Shown here piece by piece: positions 96 to 64,000 of a stretch of DNA of 64,000 bases. Numbering within the stretch: position 1 is the stretch's first letter; every line of letters starts with the position of its first letter. Both the position numbers and the translations under genes were made by a program. The DNA is taken from positions 98,521 to 162,520 of the forward strand of contig JBFWWP010000004.1 of assembly GCA_050246115.1 (NCBI GenBank). The letters run 5' to 3'. Under the pieces are notes generated by a model. The model saw only the letters and a program-made list of their open reading frames with translations, searched no databases and had not been told where the DNA came from. This DNA comes from Planctomycetota bacterium. Its GTDB lineage: Bacteria; Planctomycetota; UBA8108; UBA1146; JAJFFE01.

Positions 96-2582
96 GTGCG
101 GGCGGCGGAGCGCGCCCTCGAGCTGGACCCGCGAAGTTCGTGGGCGTGGCGACTCCTGGGACTCCGGCGTCTCGATCTCGCGGAGATCGAGCCGGCGATC
201 GCGGCCTTGACTCAGAGCAGCGACGTGAATCCCAGCGACTTCTGGTCATGGCGTGCGCTCGCCGAGCTCCACCGCGACCGCGGCGAGTACGAGAAGTCGT
301 TGGCCTGGATTCGGCACCGACATGCGTGGCGGCCCACGGACGACCGCATCTACGTCGAGCTGTTCGAGACGTGTCGCGCAGGTGGGCTTTGGGCGGAAGG
401 GGAACGTTGGTTCACCGAACTCGGGGCGGGGCGCTTCGACGAACCCGAGCGCCAGCTGTACCTGGGCCGTCTGCGCGAGGCGGCAGGCGACGCGACGGGT
501 GCGCTGGCCGCCTACGACACGGCGCTCGAGCTGGCACCGACGATGCGGGAGGCGCTCCTCCAGCGCTCCAAGTTCATGCGCAGGCTCGGTCGCAGGCAGG
601 AGTGCCGGCGAGACTTGGAGACGCTGCTCGCACTCGAGCCCGCACACACCGACGCGCTCGAGGTGTACATCTCAGATCTCGATAGCGGCGACGCGGAGCA
701 AGTCGCAGGTGCGACCGCTTTGCTCGAGCGAGCGCTGTCCAGCTCCCCGGACACACACGAGATCTACGGTCAGATCAACCGCCTCTCGCAACGAACGGGG
801 GATCCGGCACGGCTCGTCTACCTGTTCGAAGCCATGCGAGGTCGAACGGCGAGCCCCGCTACGCTCGAGGGGTACATCGGTACGGCGTTCCTCGATGCGG
901 GCCGGCTCGACGAAGCGGAGGTCGCCTTCCGCCAAGCGACCGCGATCAATCCCCACATGGCGTGGGGCTGGTCGCGGCTCGGCGATCTCGAGCGCGCACG
1001 CGGGAGGATCGACGAAGCGATCCGCCTTTGGGAACAGGCGATCGCGCGCAATCCGAGAGGCAGCTATCCCTACACGGCGCTCGCCGAAGTGGCATGCGAG
1101 CGCGGAGATCCGGAGGCGCGTTGGTCTGCCCTGTCGCGCCGGCTCGCAACAGACCCCGACAACCCAGACTTCCAAAGCGACCTCGAGGACCTGGCGGCGG
1201 AGCTCAGCTGCGTCGACCGTTTCGAGGAGTTCGTACGTTCCTTGCTCCCCGCCTCGCGAGCCCCCAACGAACTCATGACCCGCCTGGCGTACGTCCTCCA
1301 GGAGACCGGCCAGACGGCGCGCGCGATCGAAGCCTGCGATGAGGCGATCCGCTGGAATCCGCGCGACAGCTGGGCCCACGCCAAGCGCGCGACCTTTCTC
1401 CGGTTGCTCGACCGACACGACGAGGCGCTGACCGCCGCGGAGGCTTCGCTCGCCATCCTCCCGAGCAGCGCCGAAGCAGCGATCCAGCGGTACCTCTCGC
1501 TCTGCGCTACCGGGCGATCCGCCGCTGCCGATGCCGGCTTCTTCGATGCGATCCCGCGGGCTCCCCGGGCACGGCGGTTGTTCGACGTCTACGTGAATGA
1601 GCACGAGAAGCGGCGCCCGGCGGAGGCCGCGGCCCGCCTCTTGGAACACGCGAACGCGGTCATGCCAACGCTCGATCTGCTTCTCGCGGCGTCGCGGCTG
1701 TTGATTGCCGGCCGCAAGATCGAGCGCGCCTTCGCCATCATCGACCGCGTGTGCCACGAGTACCCCCAGGAAGCCGCCGGGTACTTTCGCGGGGTGACAC
1801 TCGCGAACGAGAAGAATCGCCGCGGTCGGCTCGAGACGTTCGCCATGCTCGGACTCACCACGCTGTCGGTACCTCGGCTCGAACTCGTCGAGTGGTTGGT
1901 CCACGACACCAACCGAGAGTGGTTTGCCCGTGCCGTGAGAGCGCGGCGGTTTCGGCGCGGCCTCGCCTCCTGTCGCTCCGAGGAAGAACTGCATCCGCTC
2001 GTCGAGCGCTGCCGTTCCCAGAGGTCAGCGTACGCCCGGTTGGCGCAGGTCAGACCCAGCGTCCTTGCGGTTCGGGTCGCGATCAGCGACCTGCACCAGG
2101 GCAAGTTCCGACGAGCCCGGCAGACTCTCGAGGCGGTCCTTCGCCTGCGTGCCGGCGACGTGCCGGCGCTCACGGTCCTGGCGAACGTCGCGATCCAATT
2201 GGGCGACGGCAAGGCGGCGCTCGAGTGCCTCCAGCGGACGCGCCGCGCCATGGTCGACGGCGAAGCCAACCGCTGGCACGACCTCGCCGTCGCAGCGCAT
2301 CTCCTCGTGGGCAACTTCGAGCGCGCGCAAGAAGCCGCTCGCGCCTCGTGGAGGCGGTATGAAGTCGAAGGGTCGTACTGGCCGCGATCCCTCGAGGGAA
2401 CCTGCCGCTCAATGGCCCTCGCGCACGCGCGCCGGGGACAACTCGCGGAGAGTCGCGAATGGGCCAAGCGGCATCAACTCGTTGCGTCTGACCGGAACCG
2501 GCGACGCTTGCGCTGGCGACTGCTCCTGGCACGCTGCCAACGGTGGCTGCGCTGGCGGCGGACGCCGCCCCGGCACGCGTAA
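96..2582 (+). CDS. TPR-repeat protein (large, all-alpha tetratricopeptide repeats); may be 5'-partial because the window starts just upstream
   Basis: 828-aa ORF with many degenerate 34-residue TPR-like units (W-LG-Y-A---A-P patterns, e.g. 'AWRLLGL', 'AAYDTALELAP', 'ARAIEACDEAIRWNP'). Coding-like composition throughout. The stop TAA at 2580-2582 lies inside the MITE-like element 2579-2661. Confidence 0.65.
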   Translation: MRAAERALELDPRSSWAWRLLGLRRLDLAEIEPAIAALTQSSDVNPSDFWSWRALAELHRDRGEYEKSLAWIRHRHAWRPTDDRIYVELFETCRAGGLWAEGERWFTELGAGRFDEPERQLYLGRLREAAGDATGALAAYDTALELAPTMREALLQRSKFMRRLGRRQECRRDLETLLALEPAHTDALEVYISDLDSGDAEQVAGATALLERALSSSPDTHEIYGQINRLSQRTGDPARLVYLFEAMRGRTASPATLEGYIGTAFLDAGRLDEAEVAFRQATAINPHMAWGWSRLGDLERARGRIDEAIRLWEQAIARNPRGSYPYTALAEVACERGDPEARWSALSRRLATDPDNPDFQSDLEDLAAELSCVDRFEEFVRSLLPASRAPNELMTRLAYVLQETGQTARAIEACDEAIRWNPRDSWAHAKRATFLRLLDRHDEALTAAEASLAILPSSAEAAIQRYLSLCATGRSAAADAGFFDAIPRAPRARRLFDVYVNEHEKRRPAEAAARLLEHANAVMPTLDLLLAASRLLIAGRKIERAFAIIDRVCHEYPQEAAGYFRGVTLANEKNRRGRLETFAMLGLTTLSVPRLELVEWLVHDTNREWFARAVRARRFRRGLASCRSEEELHPLVERCRSQRSAYARLAQVRPSVLAVRVAISDLHQGKFRRARQTLEAVLRLRAGDVPALTVLANVAIQLGDGKAALECLQRTRRAMVDGEANRWHDLAVAAHLLVGNFERAQEAARASWRRYEVEGSYWPRSLEGTCRSMALAHARRGQLAESREWAKRHQLVASDRNRRRLRWRLLLARCQRWLRWRRTPPRHA

Positions 2583-2661
2583 GGGGTCGCCCAAGGACCG
2601 GTCGAAGATGGCCCGAAGCAACGAGCAAGAGGGTGAAGTCATTCTTGGGCGACTCCTAAGG
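2579..2661. mobile_element. MITE-like element, short (internally deleted) copy: two ~20-bp inverted ends directly abutting. Overlaps the stop codon of the TPR gene.
   Basis: Sequence 'taaggggtcgcccaagg...gaagtcattcttgggcgactcctaagg' carries the same terminal inverted repeats as the full-length copies at 9184-9371 and 57411-57597. The internal 'accggtcgaagatggcccgaagcaacgagcaagagggtgaag' matches the right half of those copies. Confidence 0.55.
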
Positions 2662-7416: not shown

Positions 7417-7508
7417 CCGAGAAGGCGCAGCCACCCGTTCCATGCGAAGGCGCGTGCGCCACTGGGCGGCGGGCATCGGGTCTTGGGGGCTGCAGAGCGG
7501 CGAAGCCG

Positions 7509-7845
7509 GATGCGGACAGGCTGTCCGCGCTCCCAGGGCGCGCCGGGGCGTGTGGAGAGCGTGGGACTTGCGTATGCGTCGCGCTGGTACGATGGGCGGG
7601 GAGAAGACGGGAACGGGATCGTCGGGCGTGGGACTTGCGTATGCGTCGCGTTGGTGCGTTGGGCGGGGAGAAGACGGGAACGGGATCGTCGGGCGTGGGC
7701 TCGTGCGTATGCGTCGCGTTGGTGCGTTGGGCGGGGGGAGAGGAGCAAGACCCTCGGGAATGCCGCCGGAACTCGAAAGGGGAGCAGGTTCGTCGATGAC
7801 GTGCAGGGCACGCTATGCAGGGCGCTGGAGTCACCATCGCTGTGC
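7509..7845. repeat. Dispersed intergenic repeat family B, copy 1, containing a 67-bp unit tandemly repeated ~2.8 times (7561-7750)
   Basis: 'gatgcggacaggctgtccgcgctcccagggcgcgccggggc.tgtg.agagcg.gggacttgcgtatgcgtcgcg.tggt.cg.tgggcgggg.agaagacggg.acgggatcgtcg' is shared with 25648-25760. The distal 'gggcacgctatgcagggcg...gagtcaccatcgc.gtg' is shared with 25783-25815. Contains the perfect palindrome 'ggacaggctgtcc'. Confidence 0.6.
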
Positions 7846-7992
7846 TGATCAGGAGCCCATGCGGCTTGCTTCGGGTCTAGAGGACAGCGGTCGAATCGAG
7901 TACTCTTCTGCCTTCCAAACCGCACGCGCGGTAACGACATGCAGACTGGGGACGCGTTCCCCTGAAGTTCTTGCCCGCTGGGAGAGGCAAAC

Positions 7993-9120: not shown

Positions 9121-9183
9121 ACGCGCCCCCGCGACCGGGACGACGCGGCCAGCTAGAGGCCAAAACCACCGAAGGACCGGCTG

Positions 9184-9371
9184 CTGAGGAGTCGCCCAAG
9201 AATGACTTCGACATCTTGCCGTCGATCGGGGTCAGATTCGGCCGATCCGGAAAGCTCGGAACCGGAGGCGTAGCCTTGGTTCCGGTGAGGATTTCGAGGT
9301 TCTCGGATCGGTCGAAGATGGCCCGAAGCGACGAGCAAGAGGGTGAAGTTATTCTTAGGCAACTCCTTAGG
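9184..9371. mobile_element. MITE-like element, full-length copy (~190 bp) with ~22-25-bp terminal inverted repeats, ~40 bp upstream of the usp gene
   Basis: Left end 'ggagtcgcccaagaatgacttc', right end 'gaagttattcttaggcaactcc' (reverse complement 19/22 identical). The interior is near-identical to 57411-57597 and includes the hairpin 'ggaacc...ggttcc'. No ORF. Confidence 0.6.
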
Positions 9372-9412
9372 GCCGGGTCCTCTCACCGCAGTTCGAAAGG
9401 CAACGACGGTCC

Positions 9413-12380: not shown

Positions 12381-13603
12381 CTTCGAGCCCCCAAGAGCCG
12401 GGGTGGCGGCGCAGCGTCGGCGTCATTCATTCCGTAGGATCGTGGATCCTCGTGTTGGGGCTGGGCGTCGCAGCGCTACTGGTCGTCACCCCCGCTCCCA
12501 GCCTCGCGCTGTTTCGACTCGGCTTGATCGTGACGGAGTACGGGCACTGGCTCGCGCCAGCCCTCGTCGCAGTGGTGCTCACCACCCGCGCGCGCGACAC
12601 GACCGGGCGCGTTCGTCGCCTGCGGATCGGTCGCTCGGCGCTCGCTCTGGTTGCGGCCTCGCTGCTGATCAGCCCAGCAGTGCGCGCGTCGAACGCTGCG
12701 CCTGGCATCGCGGCCACGCTGACCGAAGCTGGCCTCACGCCCAGGGACCCCGTTGCCGGACGGCTTCGCGGGACACCGTTGCACGCCCTCGAACTGTGGC
12801 TCGGCGTCCCCGTGGATCGCCGCCCGATCGTCGAACGGACCTACTCACGATCCACGGGGGTAGACCTGAGACTCGACTTCCTGGCTGCAAGCGGCGCTGG
12901 AGAAGCCGGCAAGCCGTGCGTCGTCGTGGTCCACGGTGGTGGTTGGGACAGTGGTTCGCGCAAGGAGTTCCCCGAGCTATCGCACTATCTCGCGAACCGC
13001 GGGGTGAGTGTCGCCAGCATCGATTACCGGCTCGCACCCCGGCACCCCTGGCCCGCAGCGCGCGACGACGTCGTCACCGCGCTCGAGTACCTGCGCACGA
13101 ACGCCGTCGAACTCGACATCGACCCGAACCGATTCGTGTTGCTCGGCCGTTCCGCAGGTGCCCAAGTTGCGGCCGCGGCGGCGTACTCCCGTGCGGATCT
13201 CGGCGTCTGCGGACTGGTGGCGTTGTACGGCCCCATGGACATGCACTTCGCTTGGCGTCACGCCCGTGCCGATGACATTCTGGATTCGCCGCGCCTGATC
13301 GCGAGTTACCTCGGAGGCTCCCCTACTGCGGTGCCCACGGCATTCGACGAGGCCTCCCCCATCGGCTTCGTGAACGCGAGTACACCACCGACCCTCCTCC
13401 TCCATGGACTACGGGATGACCTGGTCTGGTACCGTCAGAGCGAGCGCCTCGCGGAACGGCTCGCATCCATGGGGGTTGCGCACGCGCTGATCCAGCTCCC
13501 CTGGGCAAACCACGGGTTCGACTATAACCTGAGCGGGCCGGGTGGGCAGGCCACGGTCTATGCCGTGGAACACTTCGTGGCTGCGGTCACCGACAGCGGT
13601 TGA
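12377..13603 (+). CDS. Membrane-anchored alpha/beta-hydrolase, esterase/lipase fold-3 (HGGG oxyanion motif, GRSAG nucleophile)
   Basis: Start trimmed to the ATG at 12377, which overlaps the upstream stop as ATGA (12377-12380). N-terminal hydrophobic helices. 'VVVHGGGWDSGS', 'LLGRSAGAQVA', 'LLLHGLRDDLV...WANHGFD'. The upstream 168 nt of the track ORF overlap the lipase gene in another frame and are R-rich. Confidence 0.75.
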   Translation: MTSSPQEPGWRRSVGVIHSVGSWILVLGLGVAALLVVTPAPSLALFRLGLIVTEYGHWLAPALVAVVLTTRARDTTGRVRRLRIGRSALALVAASLLISPAVRASNAAPGIAATLTEAGLTPRDPVAGRLRGTPLHALELWLGVPVDRRPIVERTYSRSTGVDLRLDFLAASGAGEAGKPCVVVVHGGGWDSGSRKEFPELSHYLANRGVSVASIDYRLAPRHPWPAARDDVVTALEYLRTNAVELDIDPNRFVLLGRSAGAQVAAAAAYSRADLGVCGLVALYGPMDMHFAWRHARADDILDSPRLIASYLGGSPTAVPTAFDEASPIGFVNASTPPTLLLHGLRDDLVWYRQSERLAERLASMGVAHALIQLPWANHGFDYNLSGPGGQATVYAVEHFVAAVTDSG

Positions 13604-13705: not shown

Positions 13706-15697
13706 TTGCACCGCGCGCGACTCCGGAGAACGACCACGAGGGGATCGTCCATGACGCACTCGGCATCGTCACCCGAACCGTCGCCACCGCGCGCGTGGTG
13801 GCTCGACGTGGGAATCGTCGTGCTGCTGTGCGGCGTATGCGCCGGCGTGTTTGCGAATGGAGTGCACGGCGACTTCGTCTACGATGACGTGCGGCAGATC
13901 CAGCAGAACCGCCTGATCGCGGATCCCGCGCTCCTGTGGAGGGCGCTCGTCTCCGACGTTTGGGCCTTCAAAGGCGATCGCGGTTCGAGTTGGAGCAATT
14001 ACTGGCGCCCCACCTTCGTGTTGTACCTCGTGTTGAACCAGCGCTTGTTCGGCACCGAGGATCCCTTGGGTTGGCACGTGATGAACGTGTCGCTCCACGC
14101 CGTCGTCGTGACCTTGGGCTATGGGCTACTCCGTTCACTCGGCGCGAGCCGCGCGCTCGCCGCTGCGGTGGCGCTGCTGTTTGCGGTCCACCCGGTGCAT
14201 GTGGAGTCGGTAACGTGGATCTCCGGCAGTCCTGACCTCCTGGTCGCGATCGGCACCCTCGGCGCCCTCGGGTGCGTCATGAGCGACTACCGACGACCTC
14301 GGCGTCGGACGAAGTTCGGCGGTTTGGCCCTTTATGCCTTCGCGCAGCTCGCGAAGGAAAGCGCTGTGCTGTTCCCGGCGCTCGTGTTCGCAACCGTGTT
14401 TCTGCTCGACCCAGGGTTCACCCAGCGACGGCTGAAGCGGGCCGCGAAAGCAACCGTGCCGTTCGCAGCCCTGACCCTCCTCTACCTCATCGCTCACCAC
14501 CGGATCGCCCCACCCATTGACGTTGCCTGGGATCCGGGGCTCGGCGGGATCCTGCGTACGGCGCCCCTGGTTTTGAGTTTCTATCTGCGGCAGGCACTGT
14601 TGCCGGTGTGGATCGGCCCCGCGTACCCGCTGCGGGCGCTCGGACCCGACGACCTGGATTGGCTCAACTTCACCGTCCCGCTGGCGGTGGCGATCGCGGG
14701 CGGAGCTGGACTGCTCTATGCCGCACGTCGCGACCCGGTGCGCCAGGTAGGCCTGCTCTTGTTTGCGTTGCTGCTCGCTCCGGCCTTCTACCTTCGTGCG
14801 TTTCGGCATGAGGAGATCGTGCACGACCGCTACCTGTACCTTCCGCTCCTCGGTCTCCTCGCTGCTCTCCTTCCCACGTTGGCGACCGCCGTGACGCACT
14901 GGCTGCCGCGCTCGGGCCCGCGTGTGCTCACAGCGTCTGTGTGCATCGTCGCGGCGCTCCTCGCCGTACAGACCGTGCGGTGCAATCGCACGTGGAGTTC
15001 GGCCGAGACACTTTGGACGCGAGCGGTCGAATCCGCACCGAACGCAGCCCACGCCTGGTCCGAGCTTGCGAATGTTCACTACCGGCGCCCAGCCTCGACG
15101 CCGGCGGAGCGGCAAGCGCGCGCGAACGACGCCAAGCGCTGTGTCGACCGAGCGCTCGAGTTGTATCCGGCAACCCAGGCATTCTTGTTGCGCGGTGTGA
15201 TCGCGCGGGACGAGCGACGCTTCGATGACGCCGTGGCCGATTTCGAGCGCATCCTGGCGCACCATCCGGAGCACGTGCTGGCGTACGAGAACCTCGCGGT
15301 TTGCCACGATGCCGCCGGCCATACCGAGGCGGCCATCGCGGCGCTCGAACGCGCTCGCGCCAAGGTGCCGTACCGCTATGCGACCTGGACCGAGAAGATC
15401 GCGGTTTGTTACTATCGCCTCGGTCGGCAAGACGACGTCGTGCGCGAGCTCGAAGAAGCCCGACCCCGGGTCGCCCAAGAGTACCGACTCGTCCCCGAGG
15501 CCAGTCTCGTGCTCTACCGGCTCGCTTCGATCCGCGCCGCTCGCGGCGAGACGCAGCTCGCGCGCGACGCTGCCACCGAGTTCCTTCGGCTCACTGCCGA
15601 CACGTCGCACCCGGGAATCCAGCGACGGCGCGCAGAGACCGAGACCTTGCTCGAGACCGTCCCCGCATTCGACGCAACGGCCCCATCGCAGAAGTGA
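13706..15697 (+). CDS. Polytopic membrane protein with DUF1736/TMTC-like N-terminal domain and C-terminal TPR repeats (putative protein O-glycosyl(mannosyl)transferase-like)
   Basis: N-terminal multi-TM region with the 'FVYDD...IQQN' motif that I recognise from TMTC/DUF1736 proteins. C-terminal TPR-like units ('AHAWSELANVHYRR', 'LELYPATQAFLLRGVIARDERRFDDAVADFERILAHHPEH', 'AYENLAVCHDAAGHTEAAIAALERA'). True start may be the downstream Met (13751). Confidence 0.6.
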   Translation: MHRARLRRTTTRGSSMTHSASSPEPSPPRAWWLDVGIVVLLCGVCAGVFANGVHGDFVYDDVRQIQQNRLIADPALLWRALVSDVWAFKGDRGSSWSNYWRPTFVLYLVLNQRLFGTEDPLGWHVMNVSLHAVVVTLGYGLLRSLGASRALAAAVALLFAVHPVHVESVTWISGSPDLLVAIGTLGALGCVMSDYRRPRRRTKFGGLALYAFAQLAKESAVLFPALVFATVFLLDPGFTQRRLKRAAKATVPFAALTLLYLIAHHRIAPPIDVAWDPGLGGILRTAPLVLSFYLRQALLPVWIGPAYPLRALGPDDLDWLNFTVPLAVAIAGGAGLLYAARRDPVRQVGLLLFALLLAPAFYLRAFRHEEIVHDRYLYLPLLGLLAALLPTLATAVTHWLPRSGPRVLTASVCIVAALLAVQTVRCNRTWSSAETLWTRAVESAPNAAHAWSELANVHYRRPASTPAERQARANDAKRCVDRALELYPATQAFLLRGVIARDERRFDDAVADFERILAHHPEHVLAYENLAVCHDAAGHTEAAIAALERARAKVPYRYATWTEKIAVCYYRLGRQDDVVRELEEARPRVAQEYRLVPEASLVLYRLASIRAARGETQLARDAATEFLRLTADTSHPGIQRRRAETETLLETVPAFDATAPSQK

Positions 15698-25382: not shown

Positions 25383-25862
25383 AGGCTCCCAGGGCGCGCC
25401 AGAGCGGCCGATCGAGCATGGGCTCCTGACATGCGTAACGATGGTGGCTCCATCGCCGTGTGTGGCGTGCCCAGCCCGGCGCCACTCGGGACGCCGAGCA
25501 CGAACTGGCTTTCTCCGGATCGCGCTCGGTGCCCCGAGCCGAAGGCGAGTGCTTGTGGGTGAAGTGGATGCGGCTGTGCCGGCGCCACGATGGTGGTAGG
25601 CGTGGGGCCCAGGCGGTAAGCGGAGGGTGCCGTGGCGCGAGGCCAAGATGCGGACAGGCTGTCCGCGCTCCCAGGGCGCGCCGGGGCATGTGAAGAGCGC
25701 GGGACTTGCGTATGCGTCGCGTTGGTGCGTTGGGCGGGGGAGAAGACGGGGACGGGATCGTCGACGCGGTGCTGGGCACGCTATGCAGGGCGATCGAGTC
25801 ACCATCGCCGTGTGTGGCGTGCCCAGCCCGGCGCCACTCGGGACGCCGAGCGCGAACTGGCG
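25383..25862. repeat. Dispersed intergenic repeat family B, locus 2 (one partial and one fuller copy; 60-bp subunit 'ccatcgccgtgtgtggcgtgcccagcccggcgccactcgggacgccgagc.cgaactggc' present twice)
   Basis: 25648-25815 matches 7509-7845 (see that feature). 25452-25511 and 25808-25862 are near-identical to each other. 'gctcccagggcgcgcc' occurs at both 25385 and 25660. Confidence 0.55.
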
Positions 25863-26212
25863 TTCTCGGGGTTGCGGCGTGGCGTGCCCAGCCGGGCGTC
25901 GACGATCCGGTTCCCTCTTCTTCCCCGCCCGACGCGCTGGCGCGGGCAGCGCTGCCGACTGGCGGCAAGCCGGCCTGGGCATTGTTGCCGGGCAGTCAAC
26001 GGTTGGCGCCACTTCGCGTCGCCGAGAGCCTGGGGCAGCACAGCCGTTCCACCACACGGCAAACGACTTGGGGCGTTCCCGCTCGATTCGCGGGCGCGGC
26101 GCATGGTTGTTGCCCCTCGGAGGTCGATCCTACGGGCTCCTGCGTGCCGCGCTCGGGTCACGCCAGGTCGGGATCATCCAAAGACAAGTTTCGCGAAGGG
26201 AGTCATGCGCCT

Positions 26213-31123: not shown

Positions 31124-31301
31124 GGCTCCCTGAGCGTTGGCTCCCGCTTCAGGTCGTGCGGCCGTGGTCGTCCGGGTGTGGACAACCGTACGGATGCGGC
31201 CGATCGTCGAGGGCGGTTCGCGGCGCGGTTGAACTCGGGCAGCTCACTGCATCTCGGGTGCGGGCGAAACTCAGGACGGGGAGACTCTCCGGGGCGACTC
31301 C

Positions 31302-31952
31302 TCAGCTCTTTGCCTTTTTTGCGCGACCGCGTGCCGCCCACTTCTTGCCGACGAACGGCACGGCCTCTTTGGCGCGGGTCCAGTCGAGCCACAGGTGGTT
31401 CGCGATGCCCCAAGCCTCGGCCAGCCCCCACGCTGCGATCAGAATCAAAAAGCCAGCGACGATCAGCATCGGGTGGATACGGAGCCCCTGATCGTCGATT
31501 GCCGTGAGGGTCGCCCCATCCTGCGGTACGGGCTTCCCCTTCGAAGCGCGCCACATGCTGATCGCCCACTGCGCGCCGACGAAGCAAATCACGGCGTAGG
31601 CCACCGAGATGAAGAACTTGCGAGTGAGGCGACCCTCTTCCTCGATGCGGGCAGCGACTTCCTCGCGAAGATCGTCGTCGGACTTGCGGCGCTCGGCGTA
31701 GGGTCCTTCTTCGAAGACGACTAGCTTGCACTCGGGACACTTACTGACGTGCCGGACCAGCTTGACCAGTTCGTCCGGCGACAACGCATGCGACTCGTGA
31801 GGAGGGCGGCGGAAACGATCGGCCTTGGTGCGATCGAGGACACCGGTCAGTTCGGAGTCGATCGTCAACCCCGCGATGGGGGCCGCACCCTGACGATGCT
31901 GGAAGAGCCTGTGGTACAAGGCATAGAGATCTTGGGGATCGACGTGGGCCAT
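31302..31952 (-). CDS. Hypothetical membrane protein with N-terminal CxxC-x..-CPEC zinc-ribbon-like segment and C-terminal TM helices / Lys-rich tail
   Basis: Track ORF 31302-32954 trimmed to the ATG at 31952; the upstream part is antisense to the esterase gene at 32148-32879. 'KCPECK', TM helices 'FFISVAYAVICFVGAQWAI' and 'MLIVAGFLILIAAWGLA'. Confidence 0.45.
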   Translation of the reverse strand: MAHVDPQDLYALYHRLFQHRQGAAPIAGLTIDSELTGVLDRTKADRFRRPPHESHALSPDELVKLVRHVSKCPECKLVVFEEGPYAERRKSDDDLREEVAARIEEEGRLTRKFFISVAYAVICFVGAQWAISMWRASKGKPVPQDGATLTAIDDQGLRIHPMLIVAGFLILIAAWGLAEAWGIANHLWLDWTRAKEAVPFVGKKWAARGRAKKAKS

Positions 31953-43255: not shown

Positions 43256-44167
43256 ATGACGGCCGAGCGTCCCGGCTCCTCGACCCAACCCGAGTCCCGC
43301 TGGATCGTCGAGTTCCTGGACTATGCCACCGTCGAGGCCGGGCTCTCGGACCTCACTCTGGAGGCCTATCGCCGCGATTTGCGCGCGCTGAACGCTTTCC
43401 TCGGCAGCCGGGGCGTCGACCTCGGCGCTGCCGATCGCCACGCCTTGCGAGACTTCGTCGAGAGCCACTCGGCCGACCTCAGCGTGGCGACGCTCCGACG
43501 CCGAATCTCGTCCGTTCGCACCTTCTACCGGTTCTTGTCGAGTGAGGGTCGAGTCGCCCGGAACCCGGCGGAGGACCTGATGTTGCCCAAGACGTGGGCA
43601 CGTCTGCCGATCGTGCTGTCGACGAAACAAGTGTTTGCGCTACTCGAAGCTCCGTCCCCGGCCACCACCAAGACCCCGCTGCGCGACCGGGCCATCCTCG
43701 AACTGTTGTACGGTTGCGGCCTGCGGGTGTCGGAACTCTGCGACCTGGAGCTGCGAGACGTACGTTCCGTAGACGGCTTCTTGAGGTGCCGCGGCAAGGG
43801 CCGCAAGCAGCGCCTCGTGCCCATCGGGGCCAAAGCCGTCGCGGCCTTGGGCGCCTACTTGGAGCGGGAGCGCCCGCGAAACCCCGGGCAGGATTTCGCG
43901 CTCCTGTCGATCCGCGGGCGCCGGCTGGGGCGCGAGCTGATCTTTCGCCTGTTGCGGAAGTACGCCGGACTGGCGGGTCTCGCGGGGTCAGTCTCGCCTC
44001 ACACGCTGCGGCACAGTTACGCAACCCACCTCCTCGAAGGAGGCGCCGGCCTGCGGGAAGTCCAGGAGCTGCTCGGCCACGCCGACATTCGCACGACCGA
44101 GATCTACACGCACGTGGATCGTCACGAACTCAAGAGCCTGCACCGGAAGTACCACCCACGGGGGTAA
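43256..44167 (+). CDS. xerD: Site-specific tyrosine recombinase XerD/XerC
   Basis: 'LRDRAILELLYGCGLRVSEL', 'HTLRHSYATHLLEGGAGLREVQELLGHADIRTTEIYTHV'. Confidence 0.9.
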   Translation: MTAERPGSSTQPESRWIVEFLDYATVEAGLSDLTLEAYRRDLRALNAFLGSRGVDLGAADRHALRDFVESHSADLSVATLRRRISSVRTFYRFLSSEGRVARNPAEDLMLPKTWARLPIVLSTKQVFALLEAPSPATTKTPLRDRAILELLYGCGLRVSELCDLELRDVRSVDGFLRCRGKGRKQRLVPIGAKAVAALGAYLERERPRNPGQDFALLSIRGRRLGRELIFRLLRKYAGLAGLAGSVSPHTLRHSYATHLLEGGAGLREVQELLGHADIRTTEIYTHVDRHELKSLHRKYHPRG

Positions 44168-55344: not shown

Positions 55345-57399
55345 ATGGAAGCGGTGATCTCGGTCGCGTCGACCTGCGTCCTGCACCTGCCGCTGCTGCT
55401 CGCCTCGCGTCGATTCAACCGTTGCTTCTTCCCCGCCGAGTGTCGCGCTCAGGAATGGCTGCAGATCTTCTTCGTGGCCTGCGTCATCTGGCGCCTCGAG
55501 ACATTGCTCCTGCACGCGTGCGGGGCGGTCCATTGGCCGGCGGTGGTCGGCGCCCATGTCTTGATCTGCGCCGCGTGCAGGATCGCTACTTCGCGAACCG
55601 TCACTGCCCCTCCGGGCGCGGCCACACCGGCACCCCAGAGCGGTGGACCGACGACGTTCGTGGCTGCGGGCTGGATCGTGCTGCTGGCGGCTCTCGCCCT
55701 CCACCGCGTCGTCTTTCTCCCGGATCCTTACGACGCACTCACCTACCACCTCATGCTCCCGGTGCACTGGCTGCAGACGGGAAGCCTTCAACTCCTTGCG
55801 ACACCGTTCGGCGACGCCTCGCCTGGCTACACCCCGGAAGCGGTCGAGGGGTTCTTCCTCGCGCTGATGCTCCCCAGCGGACACGACTCCTTGGCACGCG
55901 TCGGTCAGTTGCCGCTGGTGCTCGCCGCCGCCTACTTGGTGTTCGACCTGACGCGACGTGAGCGTCGAGAGTCGCCGACTTGGGTGGCGGCAGTCGCCGC
56001 GAGCGCGTTCCTGCTGCTGCCGGATCTGCTGACTCAAGGAACGAACTCCATGGCCGACGTCGGTGCCGCGGCGTTCTTCCTCGGTGCTTGCCAACAGCTC
56101 ACACGTTACCGTGACGAAGGAAGCGCGGCGCGCGCAGTCCTCGGCGGCGCACTCGCAGGTCTCTTCGTCGCGAGTCGCTTCCCGGCCTTGCTCGCGTTCC
56201 CCCTCCTCGTAGCGCCATGGGTCGTGACGCTGCGCCGCAACAAGCGCCACGCGGCGCTGTTCCTCGCGTCGACCCTGGCGACCGGCGCATTTCCATACCT
56301 TCGCAACTGGATGCTCACCGGCAATCCGGTCTATCCGCTCGCCGTCGACTTCGTGGCCGGACTCGGGTTTCCTGGGCTCTTCACCCGCGACGCCATGACC
56401 CAGTCGATCTTCCACCTCGAAGGTCAAAAGCTGCTCGACTACTACCTCTACTACTTGCGCGCGGGCCTCGGATGGTGCGCCGCCGGAGTGATTGCGCCGC
56501 TCCTGTTGTACCGACGCCCAACGACGTTGGGGTACGCACTCGGCGGGGCAGTGCTCCTCTGCTTGCAGCTCTTCGTCATGCCCTTCAATGCCAATGGTCG
56601 GTTCATCTTCCCCGCCTGGGCCTGGCTGGTCATCGCGGCCGCGAGCGCGCTCGGCGCCTCCCGGGGTGGCCGCGTGATTTTGGCCATCGGCTGCGGTGCG
56701 CTCGCGTGCGACACCCTGTGGGTGTTCCCGCTCTGGGCCATGAGTCGCGGGCACACCCTCTCGTTGGTCGCCGCAGGAGTCTTCCTTCTGGGGCTCAACA
56801 CCGCCTGGCTCCTTGCGCGGCTGTCGCCCCGGGCCCGCGTCACGAGTTGGGCGACTGCCGCGACGCTCTGGCTCGTCGCCCTAGGGGTCGCCGGGGTGAA
56901 GCGTGAAGCACGACTCGATCGCATCTGGGCGCGAGATCATCGCTACGCCCCCTTTCGCGACGGCTGGCGCACGGTACGCATGGATCTCCCGGCATTGCTA
57001 GCAGCCGACGGCTCGGCTCGACCGCTGCGAATCGCCTATACCGGACTCAACCTGCCCTACCCGCTGACGGGCAGCGCTCTCGCGAACCACGTCACTACCG
57101 TTCCCCTCGACGGCGGCCCGTCCGGTCAGCTCCCCCACGAGCAACGGCTGCGCCTACCCGACTACGACCTCAACCGACACACCGTGGTACTGGCACTCGA
57201 CCGCATGCGACCGAACCGCGCTGCATGGCGTCAGGCCCTCACACGCGACGCGATCGACGTCCTCGCCGTCTACGTGCAACCGGGCCACGACGTTCCCATC
57301 GAGTATCGTTGGGCAACGGCGGACCCCGCGAGCTTCGAACCCATCGACACCGGCGCCGCCGAAGGACAGTTGCTGCTGTTTCGCGTGCGGGAGCCGTAG
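55345..57399 (+). CDS. Polytopic membrane protein, GT-C-fold glycosyltransferase-like (mannosyl/arabinosyl-transferase-type topology)
   Basis: 684 aa, >10 predicted TM helices with large loops ('FLPDPYDALTYHLMLPVHW', 'LAFPLLVAPWVVTL'). Architecture resembles the PMT/ArnT/DUF2029 classes. No precise family assignable by eye. Confidence 0.45.
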   Translation: MEAVISVASTCVLHLPLLLASRRFNRCFFPAECRAQEWLQIFFVACVIWRLETLLLHACGAVHWPAVVGAHVLICAACRIATSRTVTAPPGAATPAPQSGGPTTFVAAGWIVLLAALALHRVVFLPDPYDALTYHLMLPVHWLQTGSLQLLATPFGDASPGYTPEAVEGFFLALMLPSGHDSLARVGQLPLVLAAAYLVFDLTRRERRESPTWVAAVAASAFLLLPDLLTQGTNSMADVGAAAFFLGACQQLTRYRDEGSAARAVLGGALAGLFVASRFPALLAFPLLVAPWVVTLRRNKRHAALFLASTLATGAFPYLRNWMLTGNPVYPLAVDFVAGLGFPGLFTRDAMTQSIFHLEGQKLLDYYLYYLRAGLGWCAAGVIAPLLLYRRPTTLGYALGGAVLLCLQLFVMPFNANGRFIFPAWAWLVIAAASALGASRGGRVILAIGCGALACDTLWVFPLWAMSRGHTLSLVAAGVFLLGLNTAWLLARLSPRARVTSWATAATLWLVALGVAGVKREARLDRIWARDHRYAPFRDGWRTVRMDLPALLAADGSARPLRIAYTGLNLPYPLTGSALANHVTTVPLDGGPSGQLPHEQRLRLPDYDLNRHTVVLALDRMRPNRAAWRQALTRDAIDVLAVYVQPGHDVPIEYRWATADPASFEPIDTGAAEGQLLLFRVREP

Positions 57400-57410
57400 T
57401 CCGCGTCGTG

Positions 57411-57597
57411 CTAAGGAGTCGCCCAAGAGTAACTTCGACATCTTGCCGTCGATTTGGGTCAGATTCGGCCGATCCGGAAAGCTCGGAACCGGAGGCGTAG
57501 CCTTAGTTCCGGTGAGGATTTCGAGGTCTTCGGATCGGTCGAAGATGGCCCGGAGCGACGAGCAAGAGGGTGAAGTTATTCTTGGGCGACTCCTAAC
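57411..57597. mobile_element. MITE-like element, full-length copy, between convergent genes
   Basis: 'ctaaggagtcgcccaagagtaacttc...gaagttattcttgggcgactcctaacc' with near-perfect ~25-bp terminal inverted repeats. Interior ~95% identical to 9184-9371. Confidence 0.6.
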
Positions 57598-57751
57598 CCA
57601 CTCGCGACCTCCCGCAGTCGTGTCCCGAACTCGGGCCCCGCTTGCTCGACGACTCAACAGAAAAAGGGTCGGACCCCTCGTGGGATCCGACCCTTCGAAC
57701 ACTCGTACGCACTAGGGACTCATCGGTCCGAGCCCCTCACGCGCACACCCA

Positions 57752-60589
57752 CTACGGACACGGCGGGAAGCTGTTGCAACCCAGACCATCGTTGGTCGGA
57801 TCCGGTCCGCAGATCGGGAACGGCGCCGGCGGCGGAGCTCCGCCACTGAACAGGAACGCGAGGTTCCAGATCGCATCGGCGATGTTCAGATTGCCGTCGT
57901 CGTTCGAGTCGCACGCATCGTCGCACACCGGCGGAGCGGGCACGGTGCCACCGGGGAACAGGAACCCGAGCAATCGGATCCCGTCGGCGATGTCGACCAC
58001 GCCGTCCGCGTTGCAGTCGCCACGAATCAGAGCCTGCACGCCAACAACGGCTTGCGCGGCGGACAACGTGGGATCGTGCTGCGCGGACATGCCTGGATCG
58101 TGGAAACCCGACTGGACCGGGGTATGCACCGCGGAGTGGATCGGGTTGTGGGCCGCGGAGGCCATCGGATCGTGAACCACGGAGAACGACGGATCATGGA
58201 TCGCAGAGTCACCAGCGCTGTGCATGCTGGTCCAGAACGGATCGTGGATCGTCGAAGTCAGCGGCCCGTGCAGCGCACTCTCACCGGGGATGTGAACGCT
58301 CGAGACGCCCGGATTGTGGGTCGCGGACAAGCCCGGATCATGCTGCGCCGAGTTGAACGGCGAGTGTACCGACGACGTGAGCGGATCGTGGTTCGCGGAC
58401 AGCGCCGCGTCGTGGACCACCGACTGCGCGGGGTCGTGCTGCGCCGAAGCCGCCGGATCGTGCATGCCGGACCAGTGAGGATCGTGCACGGTCGAGGTCA
58501 GCGGATTGTGCAACACGCTGTTGGCTGCGTCGTGAACCGACGAGATCGCCGGGTCGTGCGTACCCGAGACCGTCGGGTCGTGCTGATTCGAATTGAACGG
58601 CGAGTGCACGACGCTGATGGACGGATCGTGCTGCGTCGACGTGGTCGCGTCGTGAACGTTGGAGCGGGCCGGGTCGTGAACGACCGACTGCGTGGGATCG
58701 TGCTGCATCGACCAGAACGGGTCGTGCGTGTTCGATCCCAGTGGGTCGTGCTGACCCGACAAGGTCGGCACGTGCACCGTCGAGACCGCCGGGTCGTGGA
58801 TGTCGGACGCCAACGGCCGGTGGACTCCGGACATCAGCGGCGCGTGCACACCGGACACCAACGGATCGTGGTGGTTCGAGTTGAACGGCGAGTGCACCGC
58901 ACTCACCACGGGTACGTGGACTTGCGACAGTCCCGGCTCGTGGATGTTGGTGGTCACCGGGTTGTGGAACTGCGACAACGAGGGGTCGTGTTGCGACGAC
59001 CAGAACGGGTCGTGCACCGCCGAGTTGAACGGGTTGTGGTTGCTGCTGATCCCCGGCTCGTGGATCGGCGAGATCGTCGGGTTGTGGAACGACGACACGC
59101 TCGGACTATGCGTCACCGACTGATCCGGAGCATGGAAGATCGAGTTCAGCACCGGGTGCGAGCCCGACACGAGCGGATCGTGCTGCGACGACAGGGTCGG
59201 AGCATGGAACGGCGACAGCGCCGGGTCGTGTTGGCTCGAGACGAACGGATCGTGTTGAGCCGACATGACCGGAGAGTGCACGGTCGACACTACGGGGTCG
59301 TGCTGCGCGGTCAGGGCCGGGTCGTGCACCGCCGACAAGTTGGGATTGTGCGTCGACGAATCCGCGGCGGTGTGCATGCCGGTCCAGTGAGGATCGTGGA
59401 CGAGCGAGGTCGATGCAATGTGCTGAGAGCTCGGCCCCGGCAAGTGGACGCCGGACACGAACGGGTCGTGGCCGGACCCCGACAAGTTGGGGTTGTGGGC
59501 CGAGAAGGTCGGGTCGTGGCCCGTGGCCGTCAGCATGGGATCGTGCAAGGGCGACAGCGTCGCGTCGTGCTGGCTGGTCACCACTGGGTCGTGGATCGGC
59601 GAGATCGACGGATCGTGCATCGAGGTCCACAACGGATCATGCAGCTGCGAGAACTCCGGCGGGTGAGCTTGGCTCATGCCGGGATCATGCAACGGCGACA
59701 AGCCCGGCACGTGCACCTGCGACACGAACGGCTCGTGCTGGTCGGAGCGAATCGGCGCGTGCATGACCGAAGTCAGCGGCTGGTGCGTGTTGGTCATGGT
59801 CGGATCGTGGACGATCGACTGAGCGGGGTCGTGGGTGCTGGAGATCGCCGTGTCGTGCATGGACGACCAGAACGGGTCGTGGATGTCCGACGTCAGCGGG
59901 TTGTGCAGGCTGCTGCTGGCCGGATCGTGGATCGAGGAGGTCACGGGATCGTGAGTGCCGGACGTCGCGGCGTCGTGCTGCGCCGAGACCATCGGTGCGT
60001 GTACCGATGAGTCGAACGGCTGGTGCACCATCGACTGGTTCGGGTTGTGCAGGATCGACGCCGCGGGTTCGTGGATCGCGGACTGGGCTGCCGTGTGCAT
60101 GCCGGTCCAGTGGGGATCGTGCACATCCGAGGTCAACGGGTTGTGGAGCGTGCTGCTGCCGGGGTCGTGCACGGCGGAGATCGCCGGATCGTGGCCGGTC
60201 GACACGCTCGGGTCGTGCTGCTGGGAGGTCAGCGGTGAGTGGACCGCAGAGTCCAGCGGCGCGTGAATCGGCGACAGGTCTGGATCGTGCAGAATCGACA
60301 CCGCCGGGTCGTGCAACGCCGAGTTCGTGGCCGTGTGCATGCCCGACCAAACCACGTCATGGATGGTCGACGTCAGGGGGTTGTGCAGGGCGCTCTCGCC
60401 CGGGATGTGGACGACCGAAAGCGCTGGGTCGTGCTGAACCGACATCGCCGGATCGTGCTGCGCCGAAGCGCCGGGGTCGTGCAACACCGACGCCACTGGG
60501 TCGTGCGTGGTTTGTGCAAACGAATGCGAGGGCACGCATGCGGCAAACGCGCATACGACTCCCGCGATCACGAGACACTTGCGAAGCAT
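57752..60589 (-). CDS. Secreted protein consisting of ~100 tandem octapeptide repeats (consensus H-D-P-x-x-S-x-x) followed by a C-terminal dockerin module + Cys-rich tail
   Basis: Trimmed to 'MLRKCLVIAGVVCAFAACVPSHSFAQ' (signal peptide) at 60589. Residues ~29-850: 'HDPVASVL HDPGASAQ HDPAMSVQ HDPALSVV ...'. C-terminus: 'LIRGDCNADGVVDIADGIRLLGFLFPGGTVPAPPVCDDACDSNDDGNLNIADAIWNLAFLFSGGAPPPAPFPICGPDPTNDGLGCNSFPPCP'. Confidence 0.8.
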   Translation of the reverse strand: MLRKCLVIAGVVCAFAACVPSHSFAQTTHDPVASVLHDPGASAQHDPAMSVQHDPALSVVHIPGESALHNPLTSTIHDVVWSGMHTATNSALHDPAVSILHDPDLSPIHAPLDSAVHSPLTSQQHDPSVSTGHDPAISAVHDPGSSTLHNPLTSDVHDPHWTGMHTAAQSAIHEPAASILHNPNQSMVHQPFDSSVHAPMVSAQHDAATSGTHDPVTSSIHDPASSSLHNPLTSDIHDPFWSSMHDTAISSTHDPAQSIVHDPTMTNTHQPLTSVMHAPIRSDQHEPFVSQVHVPGLSPLHDPGMSQAHPPEFSQLHDPLWTSMHDPSISPIHDPVVTSQHDATLSPLHDPMLTATGHDPTFSAHNPNLSGSGHDPFVSGVHLPGPSSQHIASTSLVHDPHWTGMHTAADSSTHNPNLSAVHDPALTAQHDPVVSTVHSPVMSAQHDPFVSSQHDPALSPFHAPTLSSQHDPLVSGSHPVLNSIFHAPDQSVTHSPSVSSFHNPTISPIHEPGISSNHNPFNSAVHDPFWSSQHDPSLSQFHNPVTTNIHEPGLSQVHVPVVSAVHSPFNSNHHDPLVSGVHAPLMSGVHRPLASDIHDPAVSTVHVPTLSGQHDPLGSNTHDPFWSMQHDPTQSVVHDPARSNVHDATTSTQHDPSISVVHSPFNSNQHDPTVSGTHDPAISSVHDAANSVLHNPLTSTVHDPHWSGMHDPAASAQHDPAQSVVHDAALSANHDPLTSSVHSPFNSAQHDPGLSATHNPGVSSVHIPGESALHGPLTSTIHDPFWTSMHSAGDSAIHDPSFSVVHDPMASAAHNPIHSAVHTPVQSGFHDPGMSAQHDPTLSAAQAVVGVQALIRGDCNADGVVDIADGIRLLGFLFPGGTVPAPPVCDDACDSNDDGNLNIADAIWNLAFLFSGGAPPPAPFPICGPDPTNDGLGCNSFPPCP
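58045..60505. repeat. 24-bp in-frame tandem repeat array (coding for the HDPxxSxx octads), ~100 units, with a 240-bp super-period
   Basis: On the plus strand 'ggatcgtg' (reverse complement of CAC-GAT-CC = His-Asp-Pro) recurs every 24 nt. The Trp-containing octads (HDPxW[ST][GS]M) recur about every 10 units. Confidence 0.85.
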
Positions 60590-60664
60590 GGAATACCTCC
60601 TCCTCTTTCCTCGTGAACCGCGGCGACGTCCGACAAGGACGAGCGCGCGAGGTCCACGCATCGG

Positions 60665-63948: not shown

Positions 63949-64000
63949 GCAGGCTGACTCCTCGTTAGACGCACTCCCGTTAGGCGCACTCCTCGTTAGA

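Follow-up and report, generated by a model that had tools for sequence, protein, structure and literature searches.

Long-hairpin bacterial MITEs include the Correia (NEMIS) elements of Neisseria, the ERIC (IRU) elements of enterobacteria and the RUP elements of Streptococcus pneumoniae, which are 100-200 bp long, end in terminal inverted repeats (TIRs), are flanked by short AT-rich target duplications, lie between genes, where they are often co-transcribed, and fold from end to end. RUP has an IS630-type partner and TA duplications, and RNase III processing as well as effects on promoters and stability have been shown for Correia and ERIC. Among eukaryotic elements, Tourist MITEs of the PIF/Harbinger superfamily use a 3-bp TWA target. 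Insertion sequences (ISs) of the ISAzo13 family are reported to make 3-bp target-site duplications (TSDs) (PMC10045372), and TSDs of the same length are described for Zator, eukaryotic transposons related to ISAzo13 (PMC10045372, PMC5718144). REP/BIME repeats, which RAYT transposases move, are described as 20-40-bp extragenic palindromes with GTAG/CGTC heads and no TIR-plus-TSD anatomy (PMC3733652).

We analysed a 64-kb stretch of DNA (hereafter the window) from an uncultured Planctomycetota bacterium and found in it a non-coding 179-bp repeat that we regard, with a probability of about 0.85, as a MITE family with ISAzo13-type ends, moved in trans by a transposase of that type, duplicating 3 bp of a TNA target and accumulating at gene ends. 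The repeat family, its TIRs, its 3-bp duplications and the match of its ends to those of ISAzo13-type ISs can be read directly from the DNA; the repeat is short and non-coding, its TSDs have a fixed length and its dispersed copies have unrelated flanks, so that it displays every testable trait of a bacterial MITE. The element is like Correia, ERIC and RUP in the traits named above, but it is unrelated to them in sequence and its presumed transposase family is different. Zator and Tourist share the 3-bp target with it, but they are eukaryotic and without sequence similarity, and the transposase superfamily of Tourist is another one. REP/BIME repeats are likewise extragenic palindromes that accumulate at gene ends, whereas their size, heads and TIR/TSD anatomy differ from those of the MITE.

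Copies, target duplications and fold of the element

Sequence comparison within the window revealed three copies, A, B and C, all on the plus strand, and an outward walk of 20 kb to the right and 7 kb to the left, which extended the contiguous sequence to 91 kb, added copy D, 7.3 kb past the right end of the window (Table 1). An alignment of copies B and C over 184 nt shows 94% identity (E = 1e-79), and copy D is 97% identical to copy C. The deleted copy A consists of ~17 nt of the left TIR fused to the right 62 nt, and its right 65 nt are 91-94% identical to the full copies. Two further copies, E and F, were found at the ends of a 42-kb and a 45-kb contig of the same MAG by exhaustive scanning with HMMER, for which copy C translated in a single frame served as the query; there they form the last 42 codons of the partial hypothetical proteins MGE3965486 and MGE3965390 (locus tags AB7I09_15435 and AB7I09_14915) at 93-95% identity, the residues before them representing new flanks. 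The assignment of E and F to the same MAG relies on the MGE3965xxx series, which also holds one of the two NCBI accessions of each window protein. The preliminary description of this DNA had counted three copies, which is an undercount, as at least six are now documented on at least four contigs and on both strands, four of them within 91 kb; this number is a lower bound, being drawn from the window, the 27 kb of flanks and the protein-scan matches.

Table 1. Coordinates of the MITE copies and of their parts (window positions unless a contig is named)
Feature	Position	Strand	Description
Copy A	2583-2656	+	74 bp, internally deleted MITE
Copy A, left TSD	2580-2582	+	TAA, stop codon of the TPR/peptidase C39 gene (96..2582)
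Copy A, right TSD	2657-2659	+	TAA
Copy B	9188-9366	+	179 bp, full-length, most diverged copy
Copy B, left flanking trinucleotide	9185-9187	+	TGA, differs from the right one (decayed duplication)
Copy B, right flanking trinucleotide	9367-9369	+	TTA
Copy B, TIRs	9188-9209 and 9345-9366	+	2 mismatches in the right TIR
Copy B, central hairpin (ggaacc/ggttcc)	9258-9283	+	
Copy C	57415-57593	+	179 bp, full-length MITE
Copy C, left TSD	57412-57414	+	TAA
Copy C, right TSD	57594-57596	+	TAA
Copy C, TIRs	57415-57436 and 57572-57593	+	21/22 complementary
Copy D	contig L029, 2428-2606	opposite genomic strand to A-C	full-length, 7.3 kb past the right end of the window

Pairwise divergence between copies is 3-6%, no two copies being identical, and copy B alone carries eight private substitutions, two of which fall in its right TIR. 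A profile of the full copies detected no additional diverged copy in the window, in which the 17-nt core of the TIR occurs six times with up to three mismatches, against 0.1 occurrences expected from shuffled sequence. Two TIR-like strings, at 31292-31305 and 15470-15483, were taken as chance matches (E 0.1).

The copies are flanked by 3-bp direct repeats, TAA/TAA at copies A and C and TGA/TGA at copy D, with TGA/TTA at copy B, and the protein sequences running into copies E and F imply a TAA on their left side. In the matched pairs the middle base is equal within a copy and different between copies, and the trinucleotide is therefore a 3-bp target duplication rather than a part of the TIR, since a trinucleotide inside the inverted repeat would be expected to give pairs such as TAA/TTA or TGA/TCA. 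The unequal pair of copy B is a decayed duplication, B also being the most mutated copy. Consistent flanking TSDs had been set as a check on the earlier proposal of a mobile element, and the flanks supply them. The same proposal had placed a TIR of ~25 bp, beginning TAAGGAG, at the ends of the element; the inverted repeat is real, but it is 22 bp long (consensus GGAGTCGCCCAAGAATAACTTC), its leading TAA belonging to the target duplication, and it pairs at 21/22 positions in copies C and D and at 19/22 in copy B. A 5-bp CTWAG duplication was ruled out, its G being missing from several right flanks.

Homology between the copies ends exactly at the 3-bp repeats, beyond which the flanks are unrelated, and for copy C the empty site can be reconstructed as CGTCGTGC-TAA-CCCACTCG. 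No natural empty site was found among the contigs that carry the flanking genes, all of which are identical in sequence (100%). In the nearest relative examined (L033), the gene order serS-pfkB-alaS-rpmF-plsX is kept and the element is absent, the alaS-rpmF spacer not being alignable.

With a G+C content of 57.5%, against 66% for the window, the element is imperfectly palindromic over its whole length and shares ~72% identity with its reverse complement. The internal ggaacc/ggttcc hairpin noticed earlier is present, but it is the centre of one long imperfect hairpin that takes up the whole element. When the element is folded as RNA, a check that had been proposed, the plus-strand (sense) RNA of the full copies is predicted to form a single stem of ~90 bp with a minimum free energy of -125 to -131 kcal/mol (z of -13 to -15), whereas the antisense RNA reaches -96 to -98 kcal/mol, ~30 kcal/mol weaker; the stem of copy C contains ten G-T against three A-C mismatches, and the better fold of the sense strand is a property of the family consensus. 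The RNA of copy A still folds into a hairpin with a 16-bp stem (-35 kcal/mol), most of the original stem having been lost. At the gathering threshold, Rfam gave zero matches in the window. The element has no coding capacity, as had been stated from the start: its open frames are without start codons, and the sole protein matches are the ORFs that run into copies E and F.

Ends shared with ISAzo13-type insertion sequences

Scanning the TIR pattern GGAGTCGCCCAAGANTNACTTC returned one match in a genome collection and five in JGI metagenomes. One of the JGI contigs (L004) carries CTAAGGAGTCGCCCAAGAATTACTTC 195 bp upstream of an ORF which, once a frameshift in an A9 run is corrected, matches the ISAzo13 family transposase model NF033519 of NCBIfam (E = 5e-37) as a truncated protein. 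This protein has 1551 relatives at E <=1e-10, the closest of which are nearly all ~260-aa orfA products on ~2-kb contigs, and the relatives that we fetched represent a uniform IS of ~1.95 kb, in which orfA is followed by an orfB of 307-323 aa; every orfB examined matches PF07592 (DDE_Tnp_ISAZ013). Members of this IS group (L004 at ~1037-1045, L010 at ~4750, L015, L017, L018 and L019) have a conserved A8-9 run ~40 nt before the orfA stop, past which orfB continues in another frame, and some relatives are already fused (425-494 aa). Judged by its position, the run looks like a site of programmed frameshifting or transcriptional slippage that would join orfA and orfB.

The ends of these ISs were set independently, by inverted-repeat searches and from identical copies in different flanks. 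The TIR consensus of the MITE agrees with the left end of L004 at 21/22 positions, with the right end of the L019 type at 20/22, with the ends of the L034 type at 19/22 (left) and 20/22 (right), with the left end of L015 at 18/22 and with the ends of L010 at 17/22 (left) and 16/22 (right), and the similarity reaches a few bases further inward in L015 and L034 (TTCGACATC and CTTCAC). Where one IS occurs as identical copies at several sites, its ends are adjoined by different trinucleotides, TAA or TTA, and these 3 bp are therefore derived from the target; L010 is flanked by TTA/TTA and L034-L036 by CAA/CAA.

The MITE and the two-ORF subgroup of ISAzo13 ISs (PF07592, NF033519; L004, L010, L015, L019-L028 and L034-L037) thus have their terminal 17-26 bp in common, at 16-21 of 22 positions, and both are bounded by 3-bp target duplications, in both cases mostly at T(A/T)A, so that ends and integration footprint are common to the MITE and the IS group. 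Their interiors differ: the IS is ~1.95 kb long and encodes a transposase, whereas the 179-bp MITE does not and is unrelated inside to any sampled IS, blastn and tblastx having found no source for its interior among them and similarity being limited to the terminal ~17-30 nt. A conserved TTGAYA motif ~30 nt inside the left ends of the ISs is absent from the MITE. The closest-matching IS ends come from other metagenomes, in which the GC content is lower, and the 91 kb made up of the window (64 kb) and its flanks (27 kb) contained no ISAzo13-type transposase. Both the idea of a MITE-like family and the suggestion that its TIR might match an IS family are borne out by these data, the former through the extra copies, the consistent 3-bp direct repeats and the IS-like ends, the latter through ISAzo13, a family with a known transposase.

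The common ends and the 3-bp footprint make mobilisation in trans by an ISAzo13-type transposase the most likely origin of the copies. The MITE would carry end sequences that this subgroup of ISAzo13-family ISs recognises, and an ISAzo13-type transposase supplied in trans would have moved it, and its autonomous partner would be expected to be a ~1.95-kb element that ends in GGAGTCGCCCAAGAAT... Integration would duplicate 3 bp of the target, usually TNA; the stop codons TAA and TGA are such TNA sites, and a duplication there would restore the stop and leave the protein unchanged. Selection against intragenic insertion, together with the TNA target, would then pile up copies at gene ends, and the present copies would mostly be decaying passengers, transcribed as 3′-UTR hairpins of no demonstrated function.

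Several other TIR matches came from the same searches. Those at L001 4853-4874, L002 1907-1928 and L005 5057-5078 are chance matches inside pyruvate:ferredoxin oxidoreductase genes, in which GGAGTCGCCCAAGAATCACTTC encodes a conserved ESPKNHFT motif, a trap for searches with this TIR pattern. A soil metagenome contig (L003 349-373, L006 3946-3970) contains a solo match of 25/25 nt to the left end of copy B, near which neither a second TIR nor a transposase was present, and which could be what remains of a related element or a chance match. Viral contigs and plasmids gave no TIR matches.

Placement at gene ends and alternative readings

Two copies sit on a stop codon, the left TAA of copy A doubling as that of the TPR/peptidase C39 gene and the left TGA of copy D being that of alaS. 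Copy B lies 64 nt past the stop of the thiolase gene and 43 nt short of the ATG of usp (9413), and copy C lies 12 nt past the TAG stop (57397-57399) of gene 55345-57399, between convergent genes. For the three copies in the window these positions agree with the preliminary description, which had put A over the TPR stop, B ~40 bp before usp and C 12 bp past the stop of 55345-57399 between convergent genes. The reconstructed intergenic regions of this G+C-rich genome offer only 3-13 TNA sites each, and the probability that at least two of four copies fall on the upstream stop codon is ~0.1; the stop-codon landings are therefore unremarkable and not significant. Insertion at a TNA stop codon is silent for the protein because the 3-bp duplication regenerates the stop, and gene-end placement is adequately explained by the TNA target and the loss, through purifying selection, of insertions inside genes, which together suffice for it.

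With the MITE removed in silico, a small hairpin with the target in its loop is predicted directly past the upstream gene for copy B (9150-9190 joined to 9367-9400) and for copy C (57397-57414 joined to 57594-57625); this does not hold for copies A and D.

The element might be more than a passive parasite, either because its transposase is directed to gene 3′ ends, at stop codons or in the loops of gene-end hairpins, or because its 90-bp sense hairpins are kept in this Planctomycetota lineage as 3′-UTR structures that set mRNA ends or stability. We consider this unlikely, the hints being that all four copies whose context is known have the orientation of the upstream gene, that three of the four lie within 12 nt of the stop codon of that gene, that two targets fall in predicted loops and that the sense RNA has an advantage of ~30 kcal/mol.

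Co-option, in which the sense hairpin of ~90 bp past the stop codons would be kept by selection as a 3′-end stabiliser, an RNase III site or a barrier to read-through, is to be regarded as distinctly unlikely. The co-orientation of all four copies with the gene whose 3′ end adjoins, including copy D on the opposite strand, would fit such a role, as would the start of three of them 0-12 nt from the upstream stop codon, but four of four gives only p = 0.125 (two-sided), and the two stop-codon landings have p ~0.1 when the scarcity of intergenic TNA sites is allowed for. The stronger fold of the sense RNA and the excess of G-T over A-C mismatches in copy C point the same way, but the private substitutions at paired positions produce, on the sense strand, four wobble pairs against five mismatches, so that the hairpin is not visibly protected after insertion, and copy A is without most of the stem.

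Nor do the copies contain recognisable signals. In none of the copies does the sense strand contain a hairpin with a U-tract, the bases that follow the hairpin being CCTAACCC, CCTTAGGG or CCTGAGTC, although a canonical intrinsic terminator (57663-57696, minus strand; 15-bp stem and T-run) lies between the repeat-rich minus-strand gene and copy C and serves that neighbouring gene, which indicates that the organism uses such signals. Copies A, B and C and their immediate surroundings contained no sigma-70-like promoter in a scan for sigma-70-type consensus sites. The terminator and portable-promoter roles that the preliminary description had put forward thus lose their footing, and its further suggestion of an mRNA stabiliser is left unsupported by the copy-specific substitutions, which show no bias towards keeping the RNA hairpin. 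A role at the RNA level is possible but unsupported.

That a RAYT (IS200/IS605-like) transposase spread the repeat as a REP/BIME-type palindrome, or that the repeat is a structured RNA gene standing on its own, is highly improbable. The element is indeed palindromic, extragenic and strongly folding, but it measures 179 bp rather than 20-40 bp, has TIRs and target duplications, which REPs lack, and ends in sequences that match a DDE IS family, while an RNA gene is opposed by the absence of any Rfam family and of any promoter-like site; the anatomy already contradicts both readings. That the repeats are immobile and arose from a palindromic intergenic sequence by segmental duplication or gene conversion is scarcely credible, for although neither an empty site nor a resident transposase was found and the documented copies number only six, this origin is already at odds with TSDs that differ between copies, with homology that stops exactly at them within unrelated flanks, with IS-like ends and with copies on both strands and on at least four contigs.

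Host genome and neighbouring repeats

The preferred reading, a MITE with ISAzo13-type ends, makes the repeat an ordinary kind of selfish DNA whose family had not been catalogued before. A Planctomycetota lineage of which few samples exist thereby gains a concrete repeat family that can be annotated, and a MITE is connected to the little-studied ISAzo13 family; a search of one literature library found no work linking a MITE to ISAzo13 and none on such MITEs in Planctomycetota, which speaks only weakly for novelty. The family also illustrates neatly how a transposon that duplicates 3 bp of a TNA target can occupy a stop codon and leave the protein unchanged. Beyond annotation and the cataloguing of mobile elements, its significance is modest.

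The repeat also accounts for the breaks in short-read assemblies of this organism, Logan contigs ending ~30-45 nt inside copies A, B and C, as would be expected of a repeat. Window positions 1-20543 are 100% identical to contig JBFWPE010000037.1 of assembly GCA_050250155.1, and a second MAG (locus-tag prefix AB7O52) carries the window proteins on a 209,560-bp contig. The host lineage of uncultured Planctomycetota is poorly sampled: each of the three window proteins looked up forms a 90% cluster of one member, and the nearest AlaS is 66% identical. From coordinate offsets, contigs of GCA_050250155.1 also apparently end near window positions 43,717 and 49,414, where the window, which comes from the sister MAG, is continuous.

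Besides the MITE, the window contains another dispersed repeat family, which bears no relation to it, at 7500-7862 and 25416-25876, both sites lying in long intergenic regions upstream of plus-strand genes. Its segments 7500-7624 and 25637-25763 are 91% identical over 127 nt, and it includes a local tandem duplication of 67 nt at 7559-7739 as well as other pieces in direct and inverted orientation. On the minus strand, the gene at 57752-60661 encodes 969 aa and consists over ~2.4 kb, nearly its whole length, of 24-nt (8-residue) repeats, with a Cornifin/SPRR-like entry as its only Pfam match. At 63950-64000, tandem units of ~16 nt (GCACTCCTCGTTAGAC and variants) begin just upstream of the serA-like gene and continue past the window end, and the host alaS-rpmF spacer (L030, ~13240-13300) carries four tandem copies of GGGCCCGACGATA upstream of rpmF.
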